Positions 1-33,276 of a stretch of 64,000 nt of DNA are shown here, piece by piece. The notes below the pieces were generated by a model. The model ran no database searches. It saw only the letters and a list, made by a program, of their open reading frames with translations, and was not told the DNA's origin. The stretch lies in sequence record NC_100372.1; one strand, given 5' to 3'. Position 1 is the stretch's first letter; each line of letters opens with the position of its first letter. This DNA comes from a phage. The position numbers and the translations under genes are program-made.

Positions 1-806
1 AGGTCTGCACCACAAGCTTTCAGCATCTCTGCCATAATGCTTGCTGGTGCTTCATCCATGTCGAACTCGCCATTAATGGTGTAACGGCGCTCACTGGTTC
101 CGTCCGCGTTTTTTACAGCCTCGTCGCATATGTTGGCAGCTTCCTTGAAGGACTCCCAGTTGATGGTTTCGTCAGGACATTTAAGGTACGTTCTTAGGTA
201 GTCCAGAATCACCAGGGCAGCGTTATTGGTATGCACCTCTTTACTGATACGAGGATCATAACATTTTTTACCAACCTTGACGAGTGTAACGTTTGGCAAC
301 CCAAAAGGAAACTTGTTAGGGTCAAACTTGAAGCTGGCACGTAGCCAACTGATCCCTCTACCTATCATGTCCGGTGTCCACGAAGGGCAGTGTGTGCCCA
401 TGAAAGGATCAGAGGTTTTTCTGTCGTTATGTAGCTCCCAAGATACCAAATCTCCATATGAGGAAATAGGATTACCGTCGATAAGTATATCTTCTATACC
501 TTCCAAGGGATGATTGGCAAGAACAATAGCACAATGAAGGGTTCTGTCCCTGTCCTGCTCCAAAAACGCAAGCAATCCAGATGTGCGTGTCTTCCCATAC
601 ACTACAGAGCAAGGTGCAGCAGAAGATCTGAGAAGCTTTTGTCTATCTTGCTGACTTCTGTAAGATTTGTTACCTTCGAAAATCTTATCCAAGGTTCTGG
701 TGGTAACAGTGTTCAGGCTGTCAGCCAGAGCTGCCTTGGATGCGTTCCAGTCATAGCTCGAAGATCTTGCAGAAGCAACGATGTTATCAATCATTGCAAT
801 TGGCAT
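1..806 (-). CDS. tail tip / host-specificity-like structural protein, partial (C-terminus lies beyond window start)
   Basis: Minus-strand frame open from ATG at 806-804 to position 1 with no stop (over 265 codons); start overlaps stop of upstream gene (ATTAATG); follows an NlpC/P60 K-like gene as in siphovirus tip modules. Not in the ORF track because no stop lies in the window. Confidence 0.35.
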   Translation of the reverse strand, partial: MPIAMIDNIVASARSSSYDWNASKAALADSLNTVTTRTLDKIFEGNKSYRSQQDRQKLLRSSAAPCSVVYGKTRTSGLLAFLEQDRDRTLHCAIVLANHPLEGIEDILIDGNPISSYGDLVSWELHNDRKTSDPFMGTHCPSWTPDMIGRGISWLRASFKFDPNKFPFGLPNVTLVKVGKKCYDPRISKEVHTNNAALVILDYLRTYLKCPDETINWESFKEAANICDEAVKNADGTSERRYTINGEFDMDEAPASIMAEMLKACGAD

Positions 807-1243
807 TAATACCTCCAGACATCAACAACGATAGAATCTTTCATGTCGAACATAAAGATCCCTTTATCACCTTTCGCCCAAATCTGATTGTTCCAGAACA
901 CACCAGCGGTGAGCCCGTTCAGACCTTCGAAAATAACAATATCGCCACGCTGAACCTGTTTAGGAGTATCCAGTCGAGTCAAAAAGAGATCAAAAATAGT
1001 AGGCAGATGTGTGGTTTTGAAACGAAGCATGCACCATCTCTTGCTTTCCAACTCTGTTTTATACGTTCCTTCAAAGTTAGAAAGAAAATCTGTTCCGTAT
1101 TGGGCATCAACACACTTAGCCGCAAAAGTGCAGCAATCGTGGAATCCCCATTCAAACGGGACGGTGGCTTCTTCGTCAAACACTTTCCACAATCTTTCTT
1201 GCCAGTCCACTAAACGAGGGTGTGTGCTCATTAAACCTCCCAA
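806..1243 (-). CDS. NlpC/P60-family tail protein (lambda gpK C-terminal-domain-like)
   Basis: 145 aa; motif FEWGFHDCCTF resembles the Cys-containing NlpC/P60 motif of lambda K (FEHGVTDCYTLF), with downstream QRGDIVIF / TAGVF similarity; position in tail module. Confidence 0.45.
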   Translation of the reverse strand: MGGLMSTHPRLVDWQERLWKVFDEEATVPFEWGFHDCCTFAAKCVDAQYGTDFLSNFEGTYKTELESKRWCMLRFKTTHLPTIFDLFLTRLDTPKQVQRGDIVIFEGLNGLTAGVFWNNQIWAKGDKGIFMFDMKDSIVVDVWRY

Positions 1244-1797
1244 ATGATCGGGCGGCTTGCCACCTGATCCACATATTTAAAAAATCTGTCATTATCGTTT
1301 CTTGAGCTATGGCTCTCCTCTGTGTATCGATAAGGAAAACCTCTTAACCAGCTGTTGAAGATGGAAGATATGGATATGGACAAAGCACTATTCTCCCCTG
1401 TCTGAATAGCCATGTCTGTTATAAGGCCGTCAAACAAGCCATTGGTTGTAACAGGTAAACCATTCTCCATGGCTGTGATATACAACGTGGCACGACAACC
1501 CGAATACTCTGTCTTCAGCAGATCACCTACATACTTGGGATCAAACCCGTTCAATGTTGCTACCACAGACCCAAAGTTGGTGGCATCTTTCTCAGATACA
1601 GCAGTCAATGTTGCTGATCCCCCTATCCCTATAAAATGTTGCCCCTCAATCACCACAACACCAGTTCCTGAGCACACCCTAACAGTCCCTGTTGGTAGCT
1701 CTAGCTTTGCAGCAATTAAGATCTCAACACTATCAAGCTCCAGCTTTTCAAGAAATAAATTATCTAATGGCGCTCTAATCATCTTAGAAATCCTCAA
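1231..1797 (-). CDS. hypothetical tail-associated protein
   Basis: 188-aa ORF, overlaps neighbours by a few codons within the minus-strand late operon. Confidence 0.3.
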   Translation of the reverse strand: MRISKMIRAPLDNLFLEKLELDSVEILIAAKLELPTGTVRVCSGTGVVVIEGQHFIGIGGSATLTAVSEKDATNFGSVVATLNGFDPKYVGDLLKTEYSGCRATLYITAMENGLPVTTNGLFDGLITDMAIQTGENSALSISISSIFNSWLRGFPYRYTEESHSSRNDNDRFFKYVDQVASRPIIWEV

Positions 1798-2374
1798 AGA
1801 AGTTGATAACTATATTATCACCTTTTTGCATAGCATCGACTTTTTGCTTAATTTTATAAATATCCCTGATATGAAACCTACCCTTTGGGGATTGAGTTAT
1901 TATCTTCATAGTGTCCCCTGCGGCAATAGGTTTTCTAAGTCTTGGAGATATGCTTATAACAGCAGACCCAACACCATCGCTGCGCACTGGAGCTGTTACC
2001 ACTTTCAATTCATCGTTAACAGATATTTTATCCCCAGCTCTAGCTATGTCTCTGTTTGGCTCCCATCCGACCGTCTTCAAAAAATCGTCGTTACCAGTAG
2101 GCCCAAGGGCGATTGGCTCATTAGCTGTTACTGAGTGACCGTACGTTTTAATAAGAAAAATGTTCCCATCTTTATACACCTGATCAACAAAGCTCTTAAG
2201 CTCTAGCAGCTGTGACTCGCTGATATTGGAAACCGTCAAAGTGCCTTTCCAGTTAGGTGTGGCATAGGTCACTTTTTGCGTTTTACCTGTAAACGGACTT
2301 TTAAACGTAACAATATCTGCCAGCAGCTCCAATCTGATGTCTGGAAGGTATCTAGGCCTTTCCCATAAAAACAT
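1784..2374 (-). CDS. hypothetical tail-associated protein
   Basis: 196-aa ORF directly downstream of the long fibre gene and its terminator. Confidence 0.3.
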   Translation of the reverse strand: MFLWERPRYLPDIRLELLADIVTFKSPFTGKTQKVTYATPNWKGTLTVSNISESQLLELKSFVDQVYKDGNIFLIKTYGHSVTANEPIALGPTGNDDFLKTVGWEPNRDIARAGDKISVNDELKVVTAPVRSDGVGSAVISISPRLRKPIAAGDTMKIITQSPKGRFHIRDIYKIKQKVDAMQKGDNIVINFFEDF

Positions 2375-2446: not shown

Positions 2447-2466
2447 GCCCCCGCCGAAGCGAGGGC
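2447..2466 (-). terminator. rho-independent terminator after long tail fibre gene
   Basis: Minus strand reads GCCCTCGC-TTCG-GCGGGGGC followed by TTTTTGTTTG, immediately after the fibre stop at 2474. Confidence 0.5.
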
Positions 2467-2473
2467 AAAACAG

Positions 2474-5400
2474 TTACTTCAGTTTCTCTTGCAACCCAGT
2501 AACAACCTCTGTCAATTTTTTAACCTGCTCCTCAAGGGAGGTTATTTTATCATCCTGTTCCCTACAAACTTGGACAAGCAAGCCTGTCACAGCTGCGTAG
2601 TCAACATTATAGAATCTTTCCTCGGTCATCAGAGGAATACCATCTTGAGTAGAACCAGGAACCTCTTTCCTTTTCACGAAAGAACCAACCGCTTCAGGTA
2701 ATGCTTCCATAACCTCTTGAGCAATTACCCCCGCGTGAGGCATACCATTCTCTTTTAGAGTGTAGGTATAGCCCTTCATCTTACGGATAGCTTCCAGCGC
2801 GTTAGGAATAACCTCTATGTTATCCTTCAGGTCTCTATCAGAGCTCTGGCTCACAGTGGTGCACTCAACTACACCGTTGACAGCAAAATATCTTGACTTA
2901 GCCTCGTCTGCCCTAGCCCCGCAGTGGAATACCCAACTAGCAGAAGAAGAGTTGTCGTTTATCTGAAACTCAAGAACGTTCTTCCTGTCTGCGCCGTTAC
3001 CCCAATAGTACATTCTACCTGAATTGGCGGGTAAGTTATCGGCGTTACTAGAAAGACTGTTAGCACCGACATGAATTTCCAGTTGATTACTGGTTTCACC
3101 AAAAGTGTAATTAGGTCTTAACTGGATGCCCTTACCAGCATCGTGTCTCCATTCTTCCCAAGTAAAGACATCGCCAACGTAGTTACCAGCACGAGTATAT
3201 CTGTCACCAAAATAGGTGATATATTCCTGCACACAACCTTGAGGTCTGTTAGCTGTGTTTTTGTAAACAAGCAGTGTACCAGCGTACGGAGCAGGGTAGT
3301 GGCGATCTATTACAAGTGCGTCAGCGTTTGAACCTTGGTGATAGAAACCTTCACGGCTACCATCATAGGCATTAAGGTCTTCTGTCCCCAGACCTTGACC
3401 ACGGTGCTGAATAACTTTGTTCCACGCCCTGTGGTTACCACCCTCAATAGATCTGGTGTATAACTGATCAAGGCGACCAGCCATTTGGAAAGCATAGTTT
3501 CCAGAAAACGCCACAGACAGTCCACCAACAACCATCGAACCTTCTGGCCCGTTGACGTTGCCAGCCATTATTTTTGACGGGTTATTAGGCCCGAACTGGT
3601 TGTTCCAGTCTCCACCAGTATGACATACAAAACCACCAGGGGCTGAGAAAGTACCATCTTTGTTGAAGTTGTAGAATCTGTGAGCGGAACCTACAACATC
3701 ACGAACAATAACTTGACCAGCTTCTGGAGTAGACCTGAACTCTGCTTGGCCTTGAAGGCCAGCACCATTACCGCATTTAGAGGTAAACGTGCCGTTAGTT
3801 AGATCCTCTGTTCCGTCAGATGCACACTGGAACCCTGCATTAGAGAATAACGCCTTTCTAGGACTGCCGTAGCACAAATAGTCAAGACCGTCTGCCCACA
3901 GCTCGACTTTAGGCATGTTCGTTTTGCTCATCACTGCATAGCGTTCAGGAGTCCCCAGGTAGTGCCACATAGTTCCACCACCAGTGTAGAAACCTGATGT
4001 TCCTTTGAACTCAACCAGAGGTCTGGTGTTTGTTACATCATCACCTTTGATTGCAAGACTCAAATCTGCAGATTCCAGAGGAGCACAGAACTTGACACCA
4101 TCTTGGTTACCTGTCACGTTGCCTACTTGCCAATCAGCCTCCCTGGTTGACACTTCTATTACAGTAGCGCCAGCATATACTGTAACAGGGAATGCACGTG
4201 CCTCTACATAGAATGCAACATACTCCTGCTTACCTCTGGTTGGAGATACACATCCGAGGATTGCTCTCTCGTTTTGGTAGAAATTAATAACCCCTTGGAA
4301 AGAATCACCTCTGTCCGTCCAGCCACCAGTTCTGTAGTGACACTGTAGTGTAGCACAGTTCATTGGGTCGCCGCCAGAAGAAGATCTGGTGACAATGGTT
4401 AAATCTGTCCCGATAGTTGCTGCAAAGTTGGGGTCAGTTCTGACGATAATAGGATAATACTTACCGTCCTGCATAGCTGCAGTTCTGGGCAGGTTTACAT
4501 ATGGTCTAGCGCCTGCTGCCAGAGGGATTCTGAATTGTGCTTGAGCATCCCCTACAGTCCTGGCACTGGTACCACCACAAGCTATCGGTAGTGGTTCCCA
4601 TTTGGCTTTCCGGTTGTTATAAACACCCCACTCAAGCGTTCCTTCACCTTGCTCGTCCATACCGCCATCCCAGATGACCATCTTGGCGGCTTTCTTAGAT
4701 CCCCAGAAACCTCTTTCTGCCCTTGAACTGCGGATCCATTCTCCAAGTCCCCAGTTTGCCAGCTGACCGTTCAGATCACCAACCTGCATATATTTAGGAC
4801 AATCTAAGACCCCATCCTCGCGGAAGCCTAAATATCTATGAGTTTCAGATCCTTTTGCGCCTTTGTGCAGGTGGATTGTCAACCAAGCCTTATTGTCGTT
4901 TCTTACCTCAGAGTAGATCCTATACCCATGCTCAAGGACACCGTCAGCGCTGTATTTGTCCCCGTTAACAATACCTGATGCCGACTTAACATCAGCCGAG
5001 CTTTGAGACAGGTAAAGGTGCCCGAAGGTAGGAGAATTCCTAGACCCAAGACCGATGTGCGATCTAAAGGTCTCATCGTTACGAGGTCTGACCATCGGCT
5101 GCCATGCAGTCCACTGGTTTGTGTTGGCCTGATAGGTTCTCAAATACCAAACATCTACGTTAGAGAATGGGTAGTATTCCTGACGACAGCCTGTACCGCC
5201 GTTAGCATTGTTCTGCCAGACAATCAAGTGACCAGCACCAGAACCTGCAGGGTAACCATTTGCCTCAGTTGCATAAGCAGTCATCGGCTGGTAGTATATA
5301 CCATCCTGATTACCAGTCAAGTTATTGATATTAAAATTTGACTCAAGGGCTGCACGTTGCTTATAGAAAGCCCCTAAATTAATGCGTGCACCTGCGGCAT

Positions 5401-6283
5401 CTCTGGCCCCTGTACCGCCCTGCTCTATAGCAAGAGGTTGCCACGAGGCTGTTTGTTGGTTCCACATACCCCAACGGCCTGTTGCATCAAGCTGCAAGTA
5501 CCCTGCCGTGTTTAAATCATCTCCGGCACGGATAACTGTTCTTGTTGGGTTGTTTGCCTCCAGGCGTTTAAATTCGTCACGAAGTGCTATTCTTTTTGTT
5601 GTTGCTACACCGTTGGCTACTGCAATGGTATACATGGCTCCGGAGGTAGCGCCACGGAAAATGCCATCAACAGTTGTAGTATCACGACGAGATACCACAC
5701 CGTTCAGAAATTTTTCACCCGCCGCTTCAGAAGGGTAGTTAGTAGTTCTTCCCTCTTCAATAACTGCAGGACCAACAAAGTTGACAAGGTGAATAACATC
5801 GCCTACAGTATGCACTGTGCCAAAATCTACCCGCTGTGCAAGTGCTTTAGCATCGTTGGCTGTCTGAACAGTAACATCCATTACATCCTGGACAGACTGC
5901 CCTTCGGCTGTCATGATCATAGATGCGCCAATGGTAGACTCCAGCTCCTCCCTTAAGGACGGATCTGTATATACCATCCACGCAGCGTCAGTAATCCCAC
6001 CGTCAGAATATGGTGAAGACAGTGCAGGGACAGTGTGTGGAAATTCGCCTTTCCAACGCAGGTATAGATCTTCCTCTTCGAAGTAGGCAAAATCCATTGG
6101 GCCGTTTAACTTACCACCTTCCTTAAAGGAGATTACATGAGAAACAGTCCCATCCACATGGACAACATCGCCAATTTTCACACGACGGGTCAGGTCTGGT
6201 TGTTGAACAACCAGGTAATCATCCTCTGTCACTGCGGTAGTGGCAGGAAGAGATTCAATTCTGACAACTTTAATATCAGCCAT
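2474..6283 (-). CDS. long tail fibre protein with C-terminal intramolecular chaperone (peptidase S74-like) domain
   Basis: 1269 aa; C-terminus DRDLKDNIEVIPNALEAIRKMKGYTYTLKENGMPHAGVIAQEVMEALPEAVG matches the auto-cleaving chaperone domain of endosialidase and T5 L-shaped-fibre type proteins; Gly/Thr/Asn-rich repetitive body; N-terminus paralogous to ORF 8918..9586. Confidence 0.8.
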   Translation of the reverse strand: MADIKVVRIESLPATTAVTEDDYLVVQQPDLTRRVKIGDVVHVDGTVSHVISFKEGGKLNGPMDFAYFEEEDLYLRWKGEFPHTVPALSSPYSDGGITDAAWMVYTDPSLREELESTIGASMIMTAEGQSVQDVMDVTVQTANDAKALAQRVDFGTVHTVGDVIHLVNFVGPAVIEEGRTTNYPSEAAGEKFLNGVVSRRDTTTVDGIFRGATSGAMYTIAVANGVATTKRIALRDEFKRLEANNPTRTVIRAGDDLNTAGYLQLDATGRWGMWNQQTASWQPLAIEQGGTGARDAAGARINLGAFYKQRAALESNFNINNLTGNQDGIYYQPMTAYATEANGYPAGSGAGHLIVWQNNANGGTGCRQEYYPFSNVDVWYLRTYQANTNQWTAWQPMVRPRNDETFRSHIGLGSRNSPTFGHLYLSQSSADVKSASGIVNGDKYSADGVLEHGYRIYSEVRNDNKAWLTIHLHKGAKGSETHRYLGFREDGVLDCPKYMQVGDLNGQLANWGLGEWIRSSRAERGFWGSKKAAKMVIWDGGMDEQGEGTLEWGVYNNRKAKWEPLPIACGGTSARTVGDAQAQFRIPLAAGARPYVNLPRTAAMQDGKYYPIIVRTDPNFAATIGTDLTIVTRSSSGGDPMNCATLQCHYRTGGWTDRGDSFQGVINFYQNERAILGCVSPTRGKQEYVAFYVEARAFPVTVYAGATVIEVSTREADWQVGNVTGNQDGVKFCAPLESADLSLAIKGDDVTNTRPLVEFKGTSGFYTGGGTMWHYLGTPERYAVMSKTNMPKVELWADGLDYLCYGSPRKALFSNAGFQCASDGTEDLTNGTFTSKCGNGAGLQGQAEFRSTPEAGQVIVRDVVGSAHRFYNFNKDGTFSAPGGFVCHTGGDWNNQFGPNNPSKIMAGNVNGPEGSMVVGGLSVAFSGNYAFQMAGRLDQLYTRSIEGGNHRAWNKVIQHRGQGLGTEDLNAYDGSREGFYHQGSNADALVIDRHYPAPYAGTLLVYKNTANRPQGCVQEYITYFGDRYTRAGNYVGDVFTWEEWRHDAGKGIQLRPNYTFGETSNQLEIHVGANSLSSNADNLPANSGRMYYWGNGADRKNVLEFQINDNSSSASWVFHCGARADEAKSRYFAVNGVVECTTVSQSSDRDLKDNIEVIPNALEAIRKMKGYTYTLKENGMPHAGVIAQEVMEALPEAVGSFVKRKEVPGSTQDGIPLMTEERFYNVDYAAVTGLLVQVCREQDDKITSLEEQVKKLTEVVTGLQEKLK

Positions 6284-6318: not shown

Positions 6319-8916
6319 TTAAAGGTACAATCCACGGTATTGAGCATAAAGGCCAAGACCGCGAAGGATTTCGCCAGAGTGATAGCCTACCGGATCAGAA
6401 ACTGCCCAGCAGCCATTTAAAACATTATCCCCATTAATAAAGTGGTGCTTTTGCAGTAGCTTCATACAGGCTTCTACAACAATATCTATTTGAGGTATTG
6501 TTTCTGAATACCCGCACAGACCTAGCCAGCAGCAACCTGCAAGCCATTCACCTACCACCCACATCCTATCTCCTCTATCTTGATAAGAGTATCCACCAGA
6601 GGTGTTAAAGTCTGTAGGCAAATTTCCTGAATGGGATGACTGGAATCTGTTGAGGAACCATGCCCATTTCTGGCAGAACAGGAACAGTCTTTCATCAACA
6701 GGCTCTTTATGTTTCTTGAGCTCATATATTGTGCGGCACGCAGCAACAAAAGATCTTGACTGGAGCTTAGAGTTATCTACCATCTCCCACCAACCAGTCA
6801 ACCCTTCATTACCTCTTTGCCATACATAACGTGAGGCAACTGGACCCTCTGTCTTAAATGTATTGTTATACCAGACTTGAGAGTCATACAGAAAGCCTAT
6901 TGTATTTGACAATCTATGGCGGTCTATGTTTTCTGCACCCATGCAGTAGACTGCTGGGTATTGCATACCAGGACAGGGCCAACTTGGCCTTTCCTCTAAG
7001 AGATAATTTTCCTTATCTATCACCTTTCCGGCAGGGAACACACCTGGGGTGTGCCTGTAGGCACCTTGCTTGTAGTTTCTGACATAGCAATCACCAACCT
7101 TGGCGGTTGATTCTGTCTTGCTTGCCATCCATACGCTAAACCAGATTAGATAAGCATCCCTATCTGCAACATAAAATTGCGGCAGTGTGTTGACGCAATA
7201 CAGATCGAACAAGCCATTACCTATCTGCCTGTCGCTCAGACTGAAATCTACAGAGGTAATTCCTTTAGGGTTAGCAAAGAAAGGTTTAATCTCATCTTCT
7301 GTGTGATGAGGTTGTGTTGGGTCTAGTTTAAAATCACCTAGGGTAAGAGTTTCTGTTACCCATTGCCCGTTAGTGGCATATAGATCAGCATACCATAACC
7401 AACGGTCTTTGTCAAGAAATTTGACCCTTACCATCTCATCATCTGATCGATAAGTCACTGAGTTTAAAGAAATCTCTCTTCCAAAATTGAAAGTTACTTT
7501 GCCTCTTACTATATTGCAACGGGTGAAGTTGTCGGAGTGGTTGTAAATGTCGGTACCATACTGCATACTGACACTCGCGCCACCGCTTACGGTAATGTTT
7601 TCCTCTTTTGGCAAGAGATACGGGTTACCGTCTTTACCAACCACCTCCACGAAATCGGTGACCTTGGCAACTGTCTCTGTTACCTCTGCCCCTCCAAAAG
7701 GGACCCCTATCCTATACTGTTTTTTGTTATTGTTGCCATCATTAAGGATGAAATGTGGCTGGAACAGGACCCCTTCTCCTCCAAAATTCATAACAATTTC
7801 GGCATCTCTGCCTATTTTGTATGTAGTCCCTTTTTGGATTATTTCGCAAGGCTGGCGTGCGTTCATTCTAAAATTGATATATCCGTCACTATCCCTACTC
7901 ATGACAGGTACTGTTCCTGCAACTAGACAAGCGCCATCTGTGAACGGGGCCTTAATCAACGTGGTCTTTCTGAACAGCTTGTCGTAGGCATTTATATCAC
8001 TAAAATTAAGCAACTTATTGTAAGACTGCTTAAACGCGGTGTAATACTTTTCCTCACCTGTCAGGGTGTAGAGTTGATAACAAGCGTCACACCACATCTC
8101 TTCCCCATCTAACTCTGGGGCTTGATTGTCTGCAACCACGTTTATAGGATTTACAATTACAGGGGATCCAGCAGGTATCACCGATCCGCCCTGCTCTTGA
8201 GGCAATCTCACACAATAGGTAACCTTGTGGTTGCCTGTAACACCCTTATCTTGCAGTTGGATTGTGCCGAACTCTGCAGACGTATGACCACTGTCGGCTA
8301 TGCTACCGTTGGCCCAATAGCGGTTACCATCCCATGCTATATACCACTCAACCCACCAACTTAATCCGGAAGTTGTCCAATTAGGATTAGCATCTGTGCC
8401 GCCGTAAACATCAGAGTCTACAGTGTTTCTTCCTAAAACACCGTTATACGCCTGAAAAGCCTTGTCCAAGTATTCTCCCCATGTCGGGGATCCTGCTGGG
8501 ATTTTTCCTCTACCTTTGTTAAAAGACACAACCACATCTTTAAACCCACCATGTGATGGAACTCCATCTGTGGATAACGGGTAGTGGGACAATCTTTGCA
8601 TTTTACTTTCTACTGCATATACTCCCAGAAGATGACTGTTGTAGGCTTCCCAAGCCTCTTTGGCCCTGTCCAGATAAAAATCGCTTTTTGATGCCCTGTA
8701 TGCCTCAATGTATCCCAGAATCAACACAGCTTGGGACTCATGCATTGCCCAATCATTATTTATCTTACTTCCTGACCAACCTGACGCTATAAGTCCATCC
8801 TGGTTTACCAGTTTGTTCTGTGTAGGGAGATTGGTAATACCTGTGTTGTTATCGAGGCACTTCCTGTGCCCCTCGATCATCTGAAATACGTTATCAATGT
8901 TGTGTTGAATACGCAT
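6319..8916 (-). CDS. putative tailspike / enzymatic receptor-binding protein (possible depolymerase)
   Basis: 865 aa, Trp/Tyr-rich, enzyme-like N-terminal region (GWSGSKINNDWAMHESQAVLILGYIEAYRASKSDFYLDRAKEAWEAY); sits between the short fibre/adaptor and the long fibre. Confidence 0.4.
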   Translation of the reverse strand: MRIQHNIDNVFQMIEGHRKCLDNNTGITNLPTQNKLVNQDGLIASGWSGSKINNDWAMHESQAVLILGYIEAYRASKSDFYLDRAKEAWEAYNSHLLGVYAVESKMQRLSHYPLSTDGVPSHGGFKDVVVSFNKGRGKIPAGSPTWGEYLDKAFQAYNGVLGRNTVDSDVYGGTDANPNWTTSGLSWWVEWYIAWDGNRYWANGSIADSGHTSAEFGTIQLQDKGVTGNHKVTYCVRLPQEQGGSVIPAGSPVIVNPINVVADNQAPELDGEEMWCDACYQLYTLTGEEKYYTAFKQSYNKLLNFSDINAYDKLFRKTTLIKAPFTDGACLVAGTVPVMSRDSDGYINFRMNARQPCEIIQKGTTYKIGRDAEIVMNFGGEGVLFQPHFILNDGNNNKKQYRIGVPFGGAEVTETVAKVTDFVEVVGKDGNPYLLPKEENITVSGGASVSMQYGTDIYNHSDNFTRCNIVRGKVTFNFGREISLNSVTYRSDDEMVRVKFLDKDRWLWYADLYATNGQWVTETLTLGDFKLDPTQPHHTEDEIKPFFANPKGITSVDFSLSDRQIGNGLFDLYCVNTLPQFYVADRDAYLIWFSVWMASKTESTAKVGDCYVRNYKQGAYRHTPGVFPAGKVIDKENYLLEERPSWPCPGMQYPAVYCMGAENIDRHRLSNTIGFLYDSQVWYNNTFKTEGPVASRYVWQRGNEGLTGWWEMVDNSKLQSRSFVAACRTIYELKKHKEPVDERLFLFCQKWAWFLNRFQSSHSGNLPTDFNTSGGYSYQDRGDRMWVVGEWLAGCCWLGLCGYSETIPQIDIVVEACMKLLQKHHFINGDNVLNGCWAVSDPVGYHSGEILRGLGLYAQYRGLYL

Positions 8917-8917: not shown

Positions 8918-9586
8918 TTAGATAGCTCCTGCGATGATCAGTGCCCCGTACCAAGTTAGTCCATTATCATATGTTTCCAACTTGAAAATGTCTGTTGCAC
9001 CAGCTGTAAATGTTAGGATAGGATCTCTTCCGTAGGCCCATTTAACATTGTCAGGCCAATAAACTTTGTTACCACCAGAGGTCTGCGTTATGCATACAGT
9101 TATAGTTCTTGCCACTCCGTCGAGCCCTTCTGTTTGATTTTCAAAAGAGATTGTGGTGTTTGAAGTGAGCCGAACTTTAAACGTGTCTGCAACGTCAAGA
9201 TCCATGTCAAGTTGACCACCAATAGAGCCGTAATCAACTATCCTACCTGAAGAAGTTGCAGCAAGCTCTCCAAAAACAGACCATGCTTTTGCAGACACAC
9301 CTCCGGCACCCTCTACAGTGGAATCTGGGAGGATTATTTTAGGATAATCTCCATTCCATGTGTAGTAGCGCTTAGTTTCCGGATCATAAGCAAAATCCTT
9401 CTTGCTCTTAAGATAACCGCCCTCTGTGAAATAAACTATTTTAGTAATGCTAAGATCATTGACAACATCATCAATCTTAGCCTTTCTTGTCCCGTCAGTC
9501 TGGTTGACAACCAAGAAGTCATCACTCAAGACTGTTTCTGCATCTTCAAGATCTGGGATTGGTATTGTAGGATAAGCTACAGCCAT
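8918..9586 (-). CDS. short tail fibre / adaptor protein sharing the N-terminal anchor domain of the long fibre
   Basis: 222 aa; N-terminus (IPDLEDAETVLSDDFLVVNQTDGTRKAKIDDVVND...FTEGGYLKSKKDFAYDPE) aligns by eye with the long-fibre N-terminus (LPATTAVTEDDYLVVQQPDLTRRVKIGDVVHVD...FKEGGKLNGPMDFAYFEE). Confidence 0.5.
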   Translation of the reverse strand: MAVAYPTIPIPDLEDAETVLSDDFLVVNQTDGTRKAKIDDVVNDLSITKIVYFTEGGYLKSKKDFAYDPETKRYYTWNGDYPKIILPDSTVEGAGGVSAKAWSVFGELAATSSGRIVDYGSIGGQLDMDLDVADTFKVRLTSNTTISFENQTEGLDGVARTITVCITQTSGGNKVYWPDNVKWAYGRDPILTFTAGATDIFKLETYDNGLTWYGALIIAGAI

Positions 9587-10324: not shown

Positions 10325-11002
10325 TTAGTGCGGTCCACTTGTCTCGCCATCAGGGCAAGAGTGGGTATGACCTTTATATTCTGCATAGAATGAGTCCAAA
10401 TCCACACCAGCAGCCGTTATAATTCTACCTGATGGATCTATTGTGGCACCATTCATTCTGATATTTCCATCCACAGCAGCTCGTAAATTGGCAGCCCCGT
10501 TGGTGAAAGAAAACTCCCCGCTACTGTCGCACCGTAATGTCCCACCAGGTGTTTGAAGCTCAAAATCACCAGAAGGTGTTAGCTTAAAATAAACCCTATC
10601 ATTCCATAACTCTACATTATCAGGATCGATCTGCAAAGCATTCGAATCTGAATGAACAGAGGTTATTGCCCACCCTGGAAATAGGCCGTGAGTTTGTTGA
10701 TCATCGTTATTGTTTTCATTTCTCTCTGAAAACTGCAACCCTACAACATCCCCAGCCTTAATTGGTAGTGTTAACCTTGCCTTCCCACTGTTTGCAGACA
10801 TCACCTGGATTGGAACATCATAGATAAGAGGGTATCTCTCAACATCTCCGTCATCAAACGTGGTTTCAGCTATCGGCTGCACGGCTGCAGAAGGGATACT
10901 GTAATCTACACTGACAACTCTGGCCCTGATACTGGTGTGGTAGTCCCTCATTATTTTTTCTATAAAGGATCTTACAGCAGCATCTTTCCTATTTATTGCC
11001 AT
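10325..11002 (-). CDS. putative baseplate spike (gpV/gp5-like)
   Basis: 225 aa; C-terminal GHTHSCPDG His/Cys tip-like motif; position in baseplate cluster. Confidence 0.35.
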   Translation of the reverse strand: MAINRKDAAVRSFIEKIMRDYHTSIRARVVSVDYSIPSAAVQPIAETTFDDGDVERYPLIYDVPIQVMSANSGKARLTLPIKAGDVVGLQFSERNENNNDDQQTHGLFPGWAITSVHSDSNALQIDPDNVELWNDRVYFKLTPSGDFELQTPGGTLRCDSSGEFSFTNGAANLRAAVDGNIRMNGATIDPSGRIITAAGVDLDSFYAEYKGHTHSCPDGETSGPH

Positions 11003-12000
11003 TATACCTCCTCAGTTTTGTCAACAACTCCACCTATTGTTTCCCCAAGGCCAAGCTCTGTAGTGTAATCACCGCCTTCTATGGTGCCCTTATGATGGAC
11101 TGTGATCACCTTATAGAAGCCTGTGTATTGCCTGCTTTTAAGATAAATGGTGGACTCTGGGAGGATAGCCCCATTAAGACATGTGGTTACAGTAAGACCA
11201 ACATCCTCTCTCGGGTTTTTCTTTTTCTTACTTGTGCCACCTTTCGCAGCAGCTTTAGCTTTTCGTTTTTTAGCAGGTTCTGGGTTTTTAGGTGTGGGTG
11301 ATCCGTGCATCCCAGACTCTGCACTTATTTCAAATACAGAGTCCTTGAACCTTTTTCCAACCTTGGTCCAATATAGAGCACCGTCCTGAACGCTGAATGT
11401 TGAGTTTGTCAGCCTTGCAAACCTGCGGAGGTTCTCTGCAGTGTTCCCAGAGAAAGCCATAGAGTATTGTAAAGTCTGGTTTCCAAAACCAACAACCCTA
11501 CCTTTTGGCAAGTTCATATCCTTCAGCAGGTCATTAAGCACAGAGTTCAGAGGTGTGCCCTTCTGATAAGATCTTGTGCTTTGGCACTTAATGATGTTCT
11601 CAGTGCCATCCCCAAAGATGAACTTAGTTTTTCTGGTCGGACCTTCCCATCTGTCCTCAACAAACTCTACAGTTCCGGAGAATATCAACTGGTTCTCATT
11701 ATCATAGCCAGCCTCAAACATAACTGCAAGAGCATCAGCTTGATGCATATCTAGATAGTTAACTGTATCGTCAGACAGGTTGTAAACTGTCACATAGCCT
11801 TTGTTTGGCTCTTTGGTATTGTCCTTTTGTATGTCAAACTCTATATTGGCAGCACCAGTGTCCGAGCTAATCTCATAAACTCCGGAATCACTCTCTCCTT
11901 TCTTTTCAACAGATTTTGGGATATTGGTTTTTGATTTACCGCCATGCTCTACAGGACGACCAAATAATAATCGCCATGTTCTACGTCTGTACTCTGCCAT
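11002..12000 (-). CDS. hypothetical baseplate/tail protein
   Basis: 332-aa ORF with Lys-rich tract (KKRKAKAAAKGGTSKKKK); start overlaps upstream stop. Confidence 0.3.
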   Translation of the reverse strand: MAEYRRRTWRLLFGRPVEHGGKSKTNIPKSVEKKGESDSGVYEISSDTGAANIEFDIQKDNTKEPNKGYVTVYNLSDDTVNYLDMHQADALAVMFEAGYDNENQLIFSGTVEFVEDRWEGPTRKTKFIFGDGTENIIKCQSTRSYQKGTPLNSVLNDLLKDMNLPKGRVVGFGNQTLQYSMAFSGNTAENLRRFARLTNSTFSVQDGALYWTKVGKRFKDSVFEISAESGMHGSPTPKNPEPAKKRKAKAAAKGGTSKKKKNPREDVGLTVTTCLNGAILPESTIYLKSRQYTGFYKVITVHHKGTIEGGDYTTELGLGETIGGVVDKTEEV

Positions 12001-12380
12001 TATTCTAACCCTTGCTGTTCCTTGTAAAGATCAACTGGGGTGCCGTATACAAGCTGTAACTCGGATCTTGCTCCAAGGTTGTATCTTCCAACCCTGCCCC
12101 AATATTGATCATCTTTAAACGACAGCGCCATCAATCTACCTTTCGGTAAATCGTCTCTGTAATGCAGTCCGTCTAAGATATCTTGACAAGCTGTTACTTT
12201 TCTGGTTACTAAAGGGCTGTCACCTACCGGACCAAGGGATAACCACCAAGACTCATCCCTCTCATTCCATTGCATACGCATTTCATACGTTTCATTGTCT
12301 AAAACAACACGCATGGTTTGATCAGGAAAGCCGTCAATGTCCCACACAAAGGTGATTATGCACCAATCTTTAAGCTCCAT
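12000..12380 (-). CDS. hypothetical tail protein
   Basis: 126-aa ORF within the tail operon, overlapping neighbours. Confidence 0.3.
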   Translation of the reverse strand: MELKDWCIITFVWDIDGFPDQTMRVVLDNETYEMRMQWNERDESWWLSLGPVGDSPLVTRKVTACQDILDGLHYRDDLPKGRLMALSFKDDQYWGRVGRYNLGARSELQLVYGTPVDLYKEQQGLE

Positions 12381-12391: not shown

Positions 12392-13303
12392 TTATTTTCC
12401 GTTCACTTTGTTGTAGTTTCCCTGCTCAGATGGGACTATGGTAGAAGGTCTTCCATATTCCTGATAATACCAATCCGCAGCAGATTGAGTAACACCGTTT
12501 TCATCCGTCCACATCATAGATTTGTATGGCTGCCACTCTTCTGCGGCATTTGTGGATGCAGTGTCTGCAAATGCCCCTGTATCCCTCTTGTTACCTACGT
12601 TACTGCCATTCTTACAGTCGTTGACAGCACCTTTTTGCTGGGTCTTGCCTACTTTCTTAGGGTTGCTGTACACAGTTGCATTAACAACCTTGTTCAAGTA
12701 GAATGTGCGGAACTCTGTAAGTTCTACATCAAACACCATCGCAGCACCTTCACCAACAGACTTGTTGGCAGAAAGGCTGGTTATGATGTAGTTCTCAAGG
12801 AGTCTTTCCTCGGTAACCAAAGAAACCAACTGGCGCTTATTAATGATCTCAGTCAAAGCCTCCAGTGCAGCGCCTGGTCGCATAGATGCTGCAGGATTTT
12901 TAGAGTCAGTATTCCTGTCAATGTAGTTTTGCTCATAGATTATATGTGGTGATGTATTTACCCTACCAGTAAAAGAAAATACACCATCTTTAATTACAGC
13001 GTGGTCTGACAGGGTAGATTTATCTTCCACCGCAAACCCAGTTTTATCAACAGAATGTTTGAAAGAGTAGTTCTCAACCTGATCGAAGATAATGGCAAGA
13101 TCGTTAGTAAAGTTTTTACCCTTCATCTCCGTATTGCGACCGCCATAGTTAAGACCGCTGACAAACATAGTGTACTTTACATCGCTTTCAGTTTGCTGCT
13201 CTGCCTTTTCAGCCTTTGGAGATTTAACCTCTTGAGGCTTGTACAGGTCTTTTTCATCAACTATATTGCTTGGCATAACCTCTCCAGGACACTCCGATAC
13301 CAT
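12392..13303 (-). CDS. hypothetical tail/baseplate protein
   Basis: 303-aa ORF immediately downstream of the tape measure gene and its terminator. Confidence 0.3.
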   Translation of the reverse strand: MVSECPGEVMPSNIVDEKDLYKPQEVKSPKAEKAEQQTESDVKYTMFVSGLNYGGRNTEMKGKNFTNDLAIIFDQVENYSFKHSVDKTGFAVEDKSTLSDHAVIKDGVFSFTGRVNTSPHIIYEQNYIDRNTDSKNPAASMRPGAALEALTEIINKRQLVSLVTEERLLENYIITSLSANKSVGEGAAMVFDVELTEFRTFYLNKVVNATVYSNPKKVGKTQQKGAVNDCKNGSNVGNKRDTGAFADTASTNAAEEWQPYKSMMWTDENGVTQSAADWYYQEYGRPSTIVPSEQGNYNKVNGK

Positions 13304-13382: not shown

Positions 13383-15719
13383 TTACCAAAGATCTGTTGA
13401 CATAAAGTTAATATCTTTGTTGTTCTCCCACTCAAGTTTTGCATCAATTATTTTGTTAAACTCGCCCTCATTTATTGAAATAGTGATTTTCCCATCACTG
13501 ATCTCTAAAGGTAGCATTTCCATAGTTCTTAATTGAGAAGCAAAACCAGGGCCACCTGGCAACGGAAGAGTACCGCCAGGTAAGGTGTCCAAAGGATCAA
13601 CAAACCCGTTACCTCCGGATATAATATCTTTGCGAATCATATCGCTGATAGTATCCAGTTGCTGATTTCTTTCACTCAGCGGGTTGAAACGGTCATTAAA
13701 TAACTCTCCGGCACTTAATATTGTGCCGATAATGCCCAGCTTGCCAAGTATGCCAACTTTACCACCAGGTGTCTTGAGGCCACCTCCACCTTTTCCTGCT
13801 GCGCCTCCACCACCAGATCCTTCTGCAGTGGCTGCACCTGCTGCTCCAGCTGCACCTCTTAGAGAACTAAGGAATTTAAAGGTTTTTACAAGCATGGATG
13901 CCATGACAAAACCTTTTGTCAGGGCGTTGACGACCAGCATGATGGCAGCAGCAAACCCTGCCCATTTAGCATAGCTAAAGGTGTCATGAAGCTCTTCAGA
14001 ATATTCCTTCGTCTTAGCTGTTATGAATCCCCATTTAATCCCCCATTCAAGGAAAAACATGCGGATCTTGACTATAGTGTTGTTCAGTTCACCAACTACC
14101 CAGTTAAGACCTCTCACAAACCCGCTAACAAAATCACCAGAGGCATCCCACACAAATTGCAAAGTCTCACCAGTGCGGATCAGTGTATAATAGAACTCTG
14201 TTAGTTCGTCAGCCCAACGGGTGAACAGTTTCTGACGGGACAGTTCGATGAAGGTTTTCAGTCTGTTTTCTGCCAGCACGTTAGACTTCTGCATTCTCTC
14301 ATAACCAGCTGCAGATGCCTCGTTCATGTACTTAGCCACATACTTCATGATCTTGGCTGTTTTAACCTCACCTTTCTTCATCATGTCCATGAACTGATCC
14401 ATGGAGAGTTCAGAAAGACCAAAAGCCTCTTTGGTGGCCTTGATGAAAGGTTCATATGCCCCAGGTAACGCCTCAGCAAGCTGTTGCTTAAGTTCTTCTG
14501 ACATTACCTGTCCTTTACCAAGCATTTGCTGGATTGCCATAATACCGCGCTGGTATTTTACCTCATCAGCACCATAAGCAGCAGCATATTGAGAGTATGC
14601 AGAGAATAGCTCATGTACCTCTTGGTTTGTCATCTGATTTTTGGCGTTCACCGCCATCTGAGAATAACCCTGAAGACCAGATTTGAGATCAAAACCAAGA
14701 CGCATAGCCTCCTGCTGGACAAACGCAACTTCACTGTTGGCTTTGTTTGGATCTCCAGTAACAGCAGTAAGAGCAGCACTTGCCCCCTCCATCATGTGAC
14801 CGGATCTGTTCACCGCAGCAAATCCAGAAAAAGCTGTATACGCAGCTGTTGCATTAATAACAGATCTACGTAAGTCTCTCAAGGCATCGCCTAGTGTAAG
14901 CGTTTGGCTGGTGGCGCTTTTAAACCCAGACTGCAGAGCTGACAGGTGGGCGTTAAAGGTTGACTTTTTCATCTCTCCGCGAGCAAACCTGGACTCTAAC
15001 TCGGAGTATCCTGGCAAGCTTCCACGGAATCCGGCTCCATACTTGGCAGAAAGTCTTATCGCAGAGTTGTATAGGTGGGTTCTCCTTGCCTCACGATCCG
15101 ACATAAGCCTATTATCCATACCAGCTTTACTGTCCCTTCTTAGCTGCCTATGGTAACGGTTCATAGCCGCTGTCTGAGCTTTCACAAGATTAGGGTCGGA
15201 AGCCACACCACCCATGTTAGGGTTACCGGGGATATATTTGAAAGATTTGGCATTAGCCAAAACTCTTGCCTTAGGTGCCTTATACCCGCCGTAAGACACT
15301 GGTGCAGATTTGGCAGCCTTTTTGGCCTCTTTAGCTTGCTGCTGGTAGAACTTACGCATCCTTGCCATTTCTGGATTTTTAGCAGTAAGATTACCTACAG
15401 CTTGTTTACGTCTCGCGTTCTCCCTACGTTCTATTGCAGCCCTTACTGCAGCCTCTTTCTTGGCTTGTGCTACGCTCTCCCTGTGCAGTTTAGCATTTGC
15501 CTGAGATTGCTGCCTGGCAACCCGCTGCATTGTTTGCTGGGTTTTAACAGCCACTGCCTGCCATCTACTCATTGGGTTGGCTGAGTTAAAATCCTCGCCC
15601 AGTTTCCTGAACTCCCTCCCAATACTGCGAATTTTCTCTACAGCTTTTTTGTAGGAGGAGTTCTCTATCTCAAAGCCAATCTTGTTGACTGTTGTGGCAA
15701 CTATTTTGTTTGTAGCCAT
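13383..15719 (-). CDS. tail tape measure protein
   Basis: 778 aa, Ala/Gln/Lys-rich helical sequence with internal Gly-rich tract (AAGAAGAATAEGSGGGGAAGKGGGGLKTPGG); follows putative tail chaperone genes. Confidence 0.7.
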   Translation of the reverse strand: MATNKIVATTVNKIGFEIENSSYKKAVEKIRSIGREFRKLGEDFNSANPMSRWQAVAVKTQQTMQRVARQQSQANAKLHRESVAQAKKEAAVRAAIERRENARRKQAVGNLTAKNPEMARMRKFYQQQAKEAKKAAKSAPVSYGGYKAPKARVLANAKSFKYIPGNPNMGGVASDPNLVKAQTAAMNRYHRQLRRDSKAGMDNRLMSDREARRTHLYNSAIRLSAKYGAGFRGSLPGYSELESRFARGEMKKSTFNAHLSALQSGFKSATSQTLTLGDALRDLRRSVINATAAYTAFSGFAAVNRSGHMMEGASAALTAVTGDPNKANSEVAFVQQEAMRLGFDLKSGLQGYSQMAVNAKNQMTNQEVHELFSAYSQYAAAYGADEVKYQRGIMAIQQMLGKGQVMSEELKQQLAEALPGAYEPFIKATKEAFGLSELSMDQFMDMMKKGEVKTAKIMKYVAKYMNEASAAGYERMQKSNVLAENRLKTFIELSRQKLFTRWADELTEFYYTLIRTGETLQFVWDASGDFVSGFVRGLNWVVGELNNTIVKIRMFFLEWGIKWGFITAKTKEYSEELHDTFSYAKWAGFAAAIMLVVNALTKGFVMASMLVKTFKFLSSLRGAAGAAGAATAEGSGGGGAAGKGGGGLKTPGGKVGILGKLGIIGTILSAGELFNDRFNPLSERNQQLDTISDMIRKDIISGGNGFVDPLDTLPGGTLPLPGGPGFASQLRTMEMLPLEISDGKITISINEGEFNKIIDAKLEWENNKDINFMSTDLW

Positions 15720-16033: not shown

Positions 16034-16507
16034 TTATTCCTGCTCTTCCGGAGCCTGATCCAGATTGTTCACCTGCTGGATCATACCCATCTGCTGTAAC
16101 ATCTCCAGAAGGCTTCCTAAACCGTCTTGTGTGAAAAAACAGCCGTAGTTAACCTCCAGAACCTTACCTGCCAGCTTAATCATCTCCAGCAGATGCCCTG
16201 CAAACACAACATCAGGGTTAAGCTTATCCACACCATCCACGGTAATATCTTCGAACAAGATCTTAAATAACTCTTCAATAGAGTTATCATCAAGTTCTTG
16301 AAACAGGTAAGCCAGGGCTGTAGGAAGGACCTCTGCCATATTCTGACCACCTGAGAGAATAGATCCGCCGACAGCTCCTAGCGGGACAGCTACAATCTTA
16401 CCGATTTTAGGCATGTTTTTCATTGCTTTCATCGGTCCCCAGTGGGTGATCACAAAGTTGTGCCCTGCTAAATCAATCTCTGTTGTAGGTCTAAAGTTTA
16501 TAGCCAT
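16034..16507 (-). CDS. putative tail assembly chaperone
   Basis: 157-aa acidic protein located between tube-like and tape measure genes; RBS AAGGATG upstream of ATG at 16507. Confidence 0.35.
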   Translation of the reverse strand: MAINFRPTTEIDLAGHNFVITHWGPMKAMKNMPKIGKIVAVPLGAVGGSILSGGQNMAEVLPTALAYLFQELDDNSIEELFKILFEDITVDGVDKLNPDVVFAGHLLEMIKLAGKVLEVNYGCFFTQDGLGSLLEMLQQMGMIQQVNNLDQAPEEQE

Positions 16508-16669: not shown

Positions 16670-17143
16670 TTAGATAATACCTGCAAGACCTGCGAGGCCA
16701 GTGAGAGCACCAGTGATGTTGTCACGGTTGAGCCATGCATCCAGAATACCGATATCCCAGTCCAGCTGACCTACTTCGGTTCCGTAAGTGAGGTCAGGCT
16801 GTTTTTGGATCCAACCGATTGTAGCAATACCAGGACCCTGGCTACCTTCCAGTAGAACCGGGAAGAATACCAGACCAGTAATAGATGCCTGTTTCTGCCA
16901 GTCAGAAAGGTAAGCGTTCCATACAGAAGTGTTCTGCAAAGACACAGTCATAACACCAGATTGGTTACGAGACAGGGCTGCAGACATTTCGCCATCCACA
17001 CCAACATGAGGGTAGATGTTGTCTTCGTTTCTTGAAACAACAATCTTGGTGTCAGCAGCGAAGCCAGTGACACGCTGCTGCATCAGATACAGTTTGACCT
17101 TTTTAGGGTCATAAGCATAAGGAGTTAAAATTTGAGTTTCCAT
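16670..17143 (-). CDS. putative tail tube protein
   Basis: 157 aa; directly follows the sheath-like gene and is followed by terminator, chaperone candidates and tape measure. Confidence 0.4.
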   Translation of the reverse strand: METQILTPYAYDPKKVKLYLMQQRVTGFAADTKIVVSRNEDNIYPHVGVDGEMSAALSRNQSGVMTVSLQNTSVWNAYLSDWQKQASITGLVFFPVLLEGSQGPGIATIGWIQKQPDLTYGTEVGQLDWDIGILDAWLNRDNITGALTGLAGLAGII

Positions 17144-28965: not shown

Positions 28966-29042
28966 TGGTCTCCACGGAGTGATTCGAACACTCGACCTCC
29001 TGATCCCAAATCAGGCGCTCTACCAAGCTGAGCTACGCGGAG
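28966..29042 (-). tRNA. tRNA-Pro (anticodon TGG), CCA encoded
   Basis: Manual fold: acceptor CTCCGCG/CGTGGAG (one G-T), D arm GCTC/GAGC, anticodon stem CCTGA/TCAGG with loop TTTGGGA, T arm GAGTG-TTCGAAT-CACTC, 3' ACCA. Confidence 0.75.
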
Positions 29043-29053
29043 TATTTATTATT

Positions 29054-29128
29054 TGGTGGCCCTGGGTGGAATTGAACCACCGTCTGGCGATTATGAGTCG
29101 CTTGCTTGAACCTTCCAGCTACAGGGCC
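29054..29128 (-). tRNA. tRNA-Met (anticodon CAT; initiator, elongator or Ile2-type undetermined), CCA encoded
   Basis: Manual fold: acceptor GGCCCTG/CAGGGCC, anticodon loop CTCATAA, T loop TTCAATT, 3' ACCA. Confidence 0.7.
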
Positions 29129-29129
29129 A

Positions 29130-29205
29130 TGGTGCTGATGGCAGGACTTGAACCTGCAACCTATTGATTACAAATCAATTGCACTGCCAATTGTGCTACA
29201 TCAGC
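29130..29205 (-). tRNA. tRNA-Thr (anticodon TGT), CCA encoded
   Basis: Manual fold: acceptor GCTGATG/CATCAGC, anticodon stem ATTGA/TCAAT with loop TTTGTAA, T arm GCAGG-TTCAAGT-CCTGC; 1 nt after tRNA-Met. Confidence 0.75.
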
Positions 29206-29211
29206 AAAAGG

Positions 29212-29308: not shown

Positions 29309-29406
29309 GCAATATGTTGACCATGTGGCTAGTCGGCGATGACGACTGTAACATTTGATAATCCGGTTCTGCTTCCGGCTTTCGCTTAATTACAAGGTCA
29401 ACAATG

Positions 29407-29497: not shown

Positions 29498-29611
29498 TTT
29501 ATAAATTACACTGATAATGACACTGATTTTCGAGCAGTTAGTGACTAGTATAAACGACGATAAATATCAATGTCATTATCTGTATGATTTATGCATTTAA
29601 AAATATAAATT

Positions 29612-29698: not shown

Positions 29699-29702
29699 AA
29701 TT

Positions 29703-33269: not shown

Positions 33270-33276
33270 ACATTCC

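Follow-up and report, generated by a model that had tools for sequence, protein, structure and literature searches.

The window analysed here is a stretch of 64,000 nucleotides from a phage genome (NC_100372.1), and the element under study is a cassette of four minus-strand genes at its very beginning. In the direction of transcription these encode a distal tail protein (Dit), a tail-tip protein of 183 amino acids (aa), a DUF6950 protein and a central fibre protein of the lambda J type, the last of which runs off the window start. When positions 1-2500 were compared to phage records, 120 matches at 90-99% identity were obtained, nearly all of them Escherichia phages of the genus Vequintavirus (rV5-like), and 116 of these records cover at least 80% of the query. 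The closest record is NHEP1 (98.6% identity). The cassette sits in a tail-fibre hot spot, between the genes for the sheath initiator and the baseplate wedge. A single nucleotide separates the Dit gene from the gene of the 183-aa protein, and TAATG overlaps are present at both ends of the DUF6950 gene, an arrangement which therefore points to one translationally coupled unit; no recognisable sigma-70 promoter was found for the cassette.

The J-type gene starts with the ATG at 806, within the overlap with the stop codon upstream. Its product is similar to phrog_5616 over residues 43-267 (E 1e-39) and to phrog_31, 'central tail fiber J', most strongly over residues 143-267 (E 7e-39). The part encoded in the window is 57% identical over 226 aa to the J-like tip protein of the Seuratvirus VogelGryff. 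For the domain tests the full-length copy of NHEP1 was used, which extends beyond the window; it matches Phage_Tail_Tip (PF09327, E 7e-39), Ig_J_second (PF24489, E 3e-30) and, in the PDB, lambda gpJ (8IYK, E 9e-28), and it stays below the cut-off of PF24421 (23.9 bits, cut-off 29). Over the hub and Ig domains the full protein is 53-57% identical to VogelGryff J, with around 690 residues aligned at 53% and few gaps. With the NCBIfam model lambda_TipJ it scores 144.6 bits at a cut-off of 1950, and it is therefore not an equivalog of lambda J. A sequence-only reading of the window, made by a model without database searches, had described the partial frame beginning at 806 as resembling tip and host-specificity proteins, which these matches bear out, and following the sequence beyond the window start through near-identical relatives gave a full J with both Pfam domains.

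In relatives J is 1199-1381 aa long (genes compared: L002:16661-20806, L001:16964-20803 and L004:10429-14028, all beyond the window start), the rV5 homologue being gp37 with 1279 aa. Relative to siphophage J, the Vequintavirus protein carries an inserted coiled-coil region of 270-370 aa with repeats of the motif TN[KQ]xT[TV]DL[LI]N spaced 44-62 aa apart. Six copies are present in NHEP1 (1381 aa), four in WalterGehring (1279 aa), one in a sister lineage (1199 aa) and none in VogelGryff J (879 aa). The length of the fibre varies because the number of repeats differs. No tandem repeats were found in the DNA of the J gene, and the repeats are evident at the protein level only. Within the genus the last 187 aa show 93-100% conservation, and they are largely peculiar to Vequintavirus; matches to siphophages in this domain are weak and confined to its first 80 residues or so.

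Mechanical prediction gave the DUF6950 gene as a frame of 145 aa with a TTG start (806-1243). Translation almost certainly begins instead at the ATG at 1231, which forms a TAATG overlap with the stop codon of the preceding gene and yields 141 aa; in the annotation of relatives the gene has 426 nucleotides. An AlphaFold (AF2) model was built from an alignment of 108 relatives, from which the residue counts below were also taken, and reached a pLDDT of 95.7. Its top match in Foldseek was the NlpC/P60 endopeptidase MepS/Spr (E 5.6e-5, probability 1.0, TM 0.59), and the next matches were all NlpC/P60 proteins, including the non-catalytic RipD. The family profile also found MepS in the PDB (E 0.008). 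The 141-aa protein is thus predicted to have an NlpC/P60 fold. This assignment came from structure prediction, since the single-sequence PDB search gave chance matches only, Pfam returned DUF6950 alone rather than a curated NlpC/P60 model, and NCBIfam nothing at E <= 1. Word-indexed homologue searches returned few proteins for both DUF6950 and the 183-aa protein; the DUF6950 family is large, with 2167 clusters at 50% identity (E <= 0.001).

Cys33, in the motif 'HDCC', is found in 108 of the 108 relatives and Asp32 in 107, and in the profile alignment this Cys falls on the 'DCSGF' motif of Spr. The His of 'RHVGIY' in MepS aligns to Thr108 (Thr, Ala or Ser in the family) and that of 'VHAS' to Trp118 or Ala119, and none of these positions holds a His in any family member. 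Lambda gpK keeps both catalytic His, whereas DUF6950 has neither. Because both are missing, the protein is probably not a canonical peptidase, although an unconventional active site is conceivable. Direct similarity to gpK was not above chance, with an hhalign probability of 7.5% and a Smith-Waterman score of 31 compared to a mean of 29.2 for shuffled sequences, and gpK itself gave a faint match to the DUF6950 family phrog_2134 (E 0.0048). We dropped the label 'gpK homologue' on account of the hhalign and pairwise scores. The sequence-only reading had called this protein NlpC/P60-like with a Cys motif resembling that of gpK; the fold and the invariant Cys hold, direct homology to gpK is not demonstrable, and both catalytic His are absent. 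It had also described a tip module of two genes, K-like and J-like, both of which are real but belong to a module of four.

For the 183-aa protein the mechanical frame extends to 1797 (188 aa, TTG start), and the annotated and likelier start is the ATG at 1782, located at the upstream stop. Its family, phrog_2048, is labelled 'tail protein', and the protein at the same place in VogelGryff is 38% identical. Searches of Pfam (including a lenient scan), NCBIfam and the PDB, with sequence and profile, gave no match beyond chance. Cys occurs only twice in the protein, at residues 37 and 96, and is thus absent from its C-terminal third. The label 'gpL homologue' was considered and dropped, as the hhalign comparison was not significant and the position of the gene alone is common to both.

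The 196-aa protein encoded by the first gene is predicted, from an AF2 model with a pLDDT of 89.3, to have the Dit fold, with an N-terminal tube-like beta-sandwich and a C-terminal domain. Foldseek aligned the model over its full length to T5 pb9 in the tail tip (7QG9_V, E 4e-9, TM 0.61) and also to chains of tail-tip or baseplate entries of DT57C, Chi and JBD30; across 7QG9_V, 8HQZ_H and 4JMQ the matches range from E 4e-9 to 7e-6 and TM 0.52-0.61 over about 200 columns. The fold came from structure prediction here as well: single-sequence and profile searches of the PDB gave chance matches only, and lenient Pfam and NCBIfam scans nothing. The position of the gene differs from the siphophage norm, as it follows a gene for a 1269-aa fibre and a terminator rather than the tape measure gene. 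Dit is also the component of the module most diverged from siphophages (31% identity, compared to 53-57% for J).

Upstream of the cassette the sheath, tube, tape measure, sheath and tube initiators, hub and spike of a contractile tail are all encoded (Table 1). In relatives the J-like gene is followed by a Baseplate_J-type wedge gene (PF04865) and a second baseplate gene, and then by further fibres. The 1269-aa fibre directly upstream of the module has an N-terminal Tail_spike_N adaptor domain and a C-terminal S74 chaperone.

Table 1. Features of the module, followed by the hairpin and the other tail genes; within both groups genes are in the direction of transcription, and the order is based on PHROG, Pfam and the annotation of relatives.
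Feature	Position	Strand	Evidence
Four-gene tail-tip module	1-2374	-	
Distal tail protein (Dit), predicted T5 pb9 type, 196 aa	1784-2374	-	phrog_1302 'distal tail protein' E 2e-50
Tail-tip protein, 183 aa, between Dit and DUF6950 (gpL/hub-adaptor position)	1231-1782	-	phrog_2048 E 9.5e-68
DUF6950 protein, 141 aa, predicted NlpC/P60 fold, gpK position	806-1231	-	PF22262 E 6e-34; phrog_2134 E 7e-49
Lambda-J-type central fibre/tip hub, first 268 codons; runs off window start	1-806	-	phrog_31 E 6.6e-39; phrog_5616 E 1e-39
Intrinsic terminator-like hairpin	2447-2466	-	8-bp stem (7 GC pairs), TTCG loop, T-run
Tail sheath, 458 aa	17154-18530	-	phrog_205 E 1.7e-118; PF11863 E 9e-12
Tube	16670-17143	-	
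Tail assembly chaperone	16034-16507	-	
Tape measure	13383-15719	-	
Tube initiator	12392-13303	-	Pfam Dit_like PF21821 E 2.5e-22
Plug	12000-12380	-	
Baseplate hub	11002-12000	-	phrog_196 E 2e-83
Central spike	10325-11002	-	PF18352 phi92-spike N-domain E 1.4e-9
Sheath initiator (gp25-like), 238 aa	9596-10312	-	phrog_4233 E 1e-97; phrog_120 E 1e-20
Fibre protein	8918-9586	-	
Fibre protein	6319-8916	-	
Tail fibre, 1269 aa, directly upstream of module	2474-6283	-	PF18668 E 1e-10; PF13884 E 1e-16; phrog_6578 E 0

The sheath-like, gp25-like and spike-like genes named by the sequence-only reading are thus confirmed by phrog_205, by phrog_4233 and phrog_120, and by PF18352, respectively; Sheath_initiator (PF10934) is moreover on record for a 92%-identical homologue of the sheath initiator. 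That reading had left a choice between a mosaic tail and a long non-contractile one in which the sheath and gp25 assignments were wrong. The second option is refuted, and nothing was found in its favour. The 458-aa protein is a sheath (phrog_205, E 2e-118), sheath initiator, hub and spike are encoded upstream, and the Baseplate_J wedge follows J in relatives. The tail of rV5 is contractile in electron microscopy, and its gp53, which has the same length of 458 aa, is listed as tail sheath protein and present in virions (PMC3606486); the sheath protein of FV3, of the same genus, is reported to form polysheaths by self-assembly (PMC6357053). It is the mosaic which stands: a contractile sheath and baseplate set combined with a Queuovirinae-type tip module which is absent from Seunavirus and Mydovirus at this locus. 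The mosaic is a fixed trait of Vequintavirus as a genus and not peculiar to the genome of the window. Since the tube initiator carries a Dit_like domain and the module has its own Dit, the genome encodes two Dit-type proteins of different origin. The phage has a complete myovirus baseplate of its own (hub, spike and wedge), and the tail-tip cassette is therefore extra.

The origin of the cassette was approached with the DUF6950 protein. In 50,697 phage records tblastn found 117 Vequintavirus copies with identities of at least 90% and another 215 copies with less than 60%, whereas the range from 60 to 90% was empty. The top matches below 60% are the Queuovirinae siphophages VogelGryff, 9g, SE1 and Greed (44-46%). 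In VogelGryff the tape measure gene is followed by genes for proteins of 194, 194 and 144 aa and for the 'J-like tail tip protein', and identities to the window are 31% for Dit, 38% for the tip protein, 45% for DUF6950 and 53-57% for J. In IMG/VR, searched through the Dit alignment, all fifteen loci retrieved have the same four genes in the same order; three are of the Vequintavirus type, and the other twelve lie on contigs that range from 9 to 61 kb, the complete ones being about 60 kb long. Vibrio phages that are more distantly related and measure 58 and 83 kb also conserve this order. Two records, VogelGryff and Vibrio phage K473, are annotated in the stretch ahead of the four genes, and in both the tape measure gene comes first; in K473 it is directly adjacent. 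None of the contexts read outside Vequintavirus departed from the order Dit, tip protein, DUF6950, J, and all of them were genomes or contigs of the siphophage type. Relatives in the wider Dit family are common on large enterobacterial contigs, which are presumably prophages. Vibrio phage vB_VibM_83AMN, whose name is that of a myovirus, was considered as a second myovirus carrier and rejected, being classified in Queuovirinae and having the siphophage gene order.

The sheath initiator of the window is shared at 60-80% identity with 69 records including Seunavirus and Mydovirus. In the tail regions of these two genera tblastn with the four module proteins gave no match, while the wedge proteins are 57-64% identical. 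The published gene order of Septuagintavirus W70 contains no module genes, the sheath initiator gene being directly followed by the wedge gene, and the published gene order and baseplate structure of phi92 list no Dit, DUF6950 or J components (PMC13450770). As the sister genera lack the module and carry other cassettes in the slot between sheath initiator and wedge, this slot is therefore a variable fibre locus in the subfamily. An ancestor of Vequintavirus would have captured the cassette from a Queuovirinae-type siphophage, without a tape measure or tube gene.

Within the genus the cassette is fixed and kept under purifying selection. At each Vequintavirus-type locus read (L001, L002, L004-L007 and L011-L013) the four open reading frames are unbroken and their order is unchanged, and in a divergent sister lineage, known from metagenomic and E. 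coli-assembly contigs, the module occupies exactly the same place. Between the window and this lineage synonymous divergence (dS) is saturated, yet identity is 83-85% for Dit, 87% for the 183-aa protein and 79% for the J N-terminus, with a nonsynonymous divergence (dN) of 0.08-0.16 for these three of the four genes. For the same pair the spike and the sheath initiator are 84% and 92% identical, and by this comparison Dit, the 183-aa protein and J are as strongly conserved as core baseplate proteins. DUF6950 evolves faster than its partners (58-61% identity and dN 0.35-0.39; L004/L007:10001-10426), which fits a non-structural or relaxed role. Taken together, the identity, origin and retention of the cassette can be stated with high confidence.

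Evidence from virions comes from rV5, where gp37, that is J, described as a protein of 1279 aa with a COG4733 domain, is among the proteins detected by mass spectrometry (PMC3606486). The proteome is shallow, with 15 spectra for the sheath and 4 for the tube. Because of this, an estimate of J copy number from spectral counts was abandoned. A second Vequintavirus virion proteome was not found in the literature.

Two baseplate proteins of Vequintavirus are extended at the C-terminus by about 24-34 aa. The 33-34 extra aa of the sheath initiator (238 aa) are absent from its Seunavirus and Mydovirus homologues (205 and 204 aa, respectively), and a second baseplate protein (228 aa; L002:14367-15053) aligns to its homologues in these genera over residues 1-204 only. 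These extensions could be docking sites for extra fibres.

The explanation which we consider rather probable overall is that a siphophage tip cassette was captured, retained and re-used as an extra fibre. Its product would most likely be an additional receptor-binding fibre with Dit and the 183-aa protein as adaptor. Since the J hub region, the Dit fold and the small protein are all conserved, a trimer of J, three copies of the 183-aa protein and a hexamer of Dit would still assemble into the kind of closed tip complex that lambda and T5 have. The complex would no longer be the end of the DNA conduit but would be mounted on the baseplate or the fibre network, because the axial position is already taken by the phage's own tube initiator, hub and spike of the iron-tipped type, all three of which are shared with relatives that lack the module. 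The face of Dit which normally docks on the tail tube would serve as attachment adaptor, and J, through its long coiled-coil insert and its genus-invariant C-terminal domain, would reach a conserved host surface structure. DUF6950 would probably act in assembly, as is supposed for lambda gpK. This side-mounted arrangement is a tentative proposal. The divergence of Dit, the C-terminal extensions of the baseplate proteins and two observations from cryo-electron microscopy (cryo-EM) fit it without proving it. In the cryo-EM study of the Vequintavirus phages Bas49 and Bas54, three of nine annotated fibres were placed and density on one fibre head was left unassigned, and a Vequintavirinae fibre whose N-terminus was noted as 'common in central tail fibers' was not placed (PMC12143355). 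More doubtful is the further step that Vequintavirus virions carry complete off-axis tip complexes as a hybrid adsorption organ, whose target might be an essential protein of the outer membrane, for instance LptD. LptD is the terminal receptor of the donor-type siphophage VogelGryff, and knock-out screens would miss an essential receptor.

Several points weigh against the explanation as a whole. Neither structural work nor genetics puts J, Dit or the 183-aa protein on the virion. Every solved Dit/J complex is coaxial on the tail tube, and no precedent for an off-axis Dit ring was found in the literature. Receptor screens of rV5-like phages report glycans only (ECA/NGR, lipopolysaccharide core) and no phenotype for J. 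The evidence for J in virions is thin, since the raw rV5 table holds for gp37 four peptides, five spectra and 4.2% coverage, with one strong fully tryptic peptide; gp38-40 are not listed in the virion data, gp39 and gp40 being the Dit and the 183-aa protein. The 183-aa protein has an hhalign probability of 0.1% with lambda gpL and no C-terminal four-Cys Fe-S cluster of the gpL type. Finally, the direction of transfer from siphophage to Vequintavirus is inferred from distribution rather than phylogeny.

The coaxial geometry of all solved Dit/J complexes, which need a six-fold tube-like partner (PMC10721106), leads to another arrangement, a lambda-like central fibre in which the Dit ring and the J cone would lie on the tail axis, under the hub and encircling the spike, and would have to open or be shed before spike and tube pass through the envelope. 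The Dit_like domain of the tube initiator, and with it the presence of tube-type stacking surfaces in this tail, would suit it, and the low abundance of J in rV5 is compatible with three copies per virion. Such a central fibre is nevertheless improbable, as hub, spike and sheath initiator are 60-90% identical to those of module-free genera with no obvious accommodation, the iron-tipped spike of phi92 is already the central piercing device and is surrounded by the wedge pin domains (PMC13450770), and the baseplate reconstructions of Bas49 and Bas54 reported no central fibre (PMC12143355). Little probability is also given to the idea that J alone enters the virion, as a lateral fibre attached by its N-terminus, with Dit, the 183-aa protein and DUF6950 as chaperones for folding or trimerisation. 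It would account for the detection of gp37 alone by mass spectrometry, agrees with the BASEL annotation of J as 'lateral tail fiber protein' and has a parallel in lambda gpK, a non-virion assembly factor (PMC10721106). However, the rV5 dataset is too shallow to exclude small proteins of low copy number, given the four spectra for the tube itself; Dit and the 183-aa protein are 83-87% identical in the sister lineage, as structural baseplate proteins are, with DUF6950 at 58-61%; and the J hub is 53% identical to siphophage J over about 690 residues, a region whose lambda counterpart needs gpL and gpM for ring closure.

Lastly, the cassette could be a decaying or selfish remnant, a recent siphophage fragment with no role in the virion. 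Its location behind a terminator, the lack of a recognisable sigma-70 promoter and the fast evolution of DUF6950 would be expected in this case. It is very improbable all the same in view of the four intact frames in constant order at all Vequintavirus-type loci read, the coverage of the region in 116 of 120 records, the low dN at saturated dS in three of the four genes, the 93-100% conservation of the J C-terminal domain and the J peptides in rV5 virions.

Some observations concern the genome and its relatives in general. All genes from position 1 to about 33 kb are on the minus strand, and around 33000-34000 the GC skew changes sign together with the coding strand, with plus-strand genes above, which marks a boundary of divergent transcription. 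Seven tRNA genes are clustered at 28966-29777 on the minus strand, six of them for Pro, Met, Thr, Ser, Tyr and Arg. To the seventh (29210-29308, 99 nucleotides) ARAGORN gave the four-base anticodon 'atcc' without assigning an amino acid, and its Rfam tRNA score is 35.5 bits. Among the matches to positions 1-2500 are eighteen GenBank records titled 'Campylobacter phage' (MG0656xx), sixteen of them with C. jejuni as host; those listed are 95.6-95.7% identical to this E. coli Vequintavirus sequence over the whole query, and the host labels look doubtful.

Part of this was known already. GenBank labels include 'central tail fiber J', 'distal tail protein' and 'lateral tail fiber protein with fibronectin type III domain', and the COG4733 domain of rV5 gp37 was noted in 2013 (PMC3606486). 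In the literature searched we found neither a myovirus with a siphophage tip module, nor a description of the four genes as one intact Queuovirinae-type tip cassette and of its genus specificity, nor a report of strong constraint on such a cassette in a myovirus with a full baseplate, nor a mention that its NlpC/P60-fold member lacks the catalytic His. Phages of the rV5 type are among the E. coli phages most often isolated, and their broad host range makes them candidates for therapy. Which of their genes build which fibres is described as unclear (PMC8594841). With four genes of the 'fibre locus' recognised as an intact siphophage tip complex, there is a concrete candidate for density left unassigned in the cryo-EM maps already available. 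The case also illustrates how an entire tail sub-assembly of several proteins can cross from one tail morphotype to another, and it may offer a way of grafting siphophage receptor specificities onto a myovirus. If the proposal is true, a module which normally ends the DNA conduit would have been re-purposed as a fibre. The 108 aligned DUF6950 members, always with the Cys and never with either His, also raise the question of the role of proteins in the gpK position in tip assembly.

Compared to known systems, the cassette shares with lambda gpM-gpL-gpK-gpI-gpJ the functional order of Dit, hub adaptor, NlpC/P60 protein and J, and Ig_J_second and Phage_Tail_Tip are common to both J proteins. The Cys motif 'F-E-x-G-x-x-D-C' of DUF6950 resembles that of gpK, but DUF6950 is a single domain of predicted NlpC/P60 fold which lacks the N-terminal 'HSHPGG' segment of gpK, a segment we take to be a JAB/MPN metalloprotease domain. 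The Dit of the window is of the two-domain pb9 type with 196 aa, whereas gpM has 109 aa; gpI has no counterpart gene in the module, and gpL has no detectable similarity to the 183-aa protein, which is without the four-Cys Fe-S site. In the lambda tip a gpM (Dit) hexamer sits on the tube, followed by a ring of three gpL and three gpJ hub domains and the J fibre, and gpK is not found in virions (PMC10721106). T5 pb9 is the best structural match of the Dit over its full length, yet sequence identity is 10-14%; in T5 the hub domains are fused into pb3 and no NlpC/P60 gene is present at that position (PMC10721106).

On the side of the contractile tail, phi92, Seunavirus, Mydovirus and W70 have the same order of tube initiator, plug, hub, spike, sheath initiator, fibres where present, and wedge, and the baseplate proteins of the closer module-free genera are 57-92% identical to those of the window. 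These phages differ in what lies between sheath initiator and wedge, where they encode other fibres or depolymerases; genes for Dit, DUF6950 and J are missing. The closest system is the tip module of Queuovirinae (Seuratvirus VogelGryff bas25_0017-0020 and Nonagvirus 9g), which has the same four genes in the same order, with the same overlapping junctions and PHROG families. In Queuovirinae the module follows the tape measure and ends a non-contractile tail, whereas in the window it comes after a fibre gene and a terminator, and the phage is a myovirus with its own hub and spike, and the Vequintavirus J differs from that of Queuovirinae by the coiled-coil insert of 270-370 aa and by a different, genus-specific C-terminal domain.

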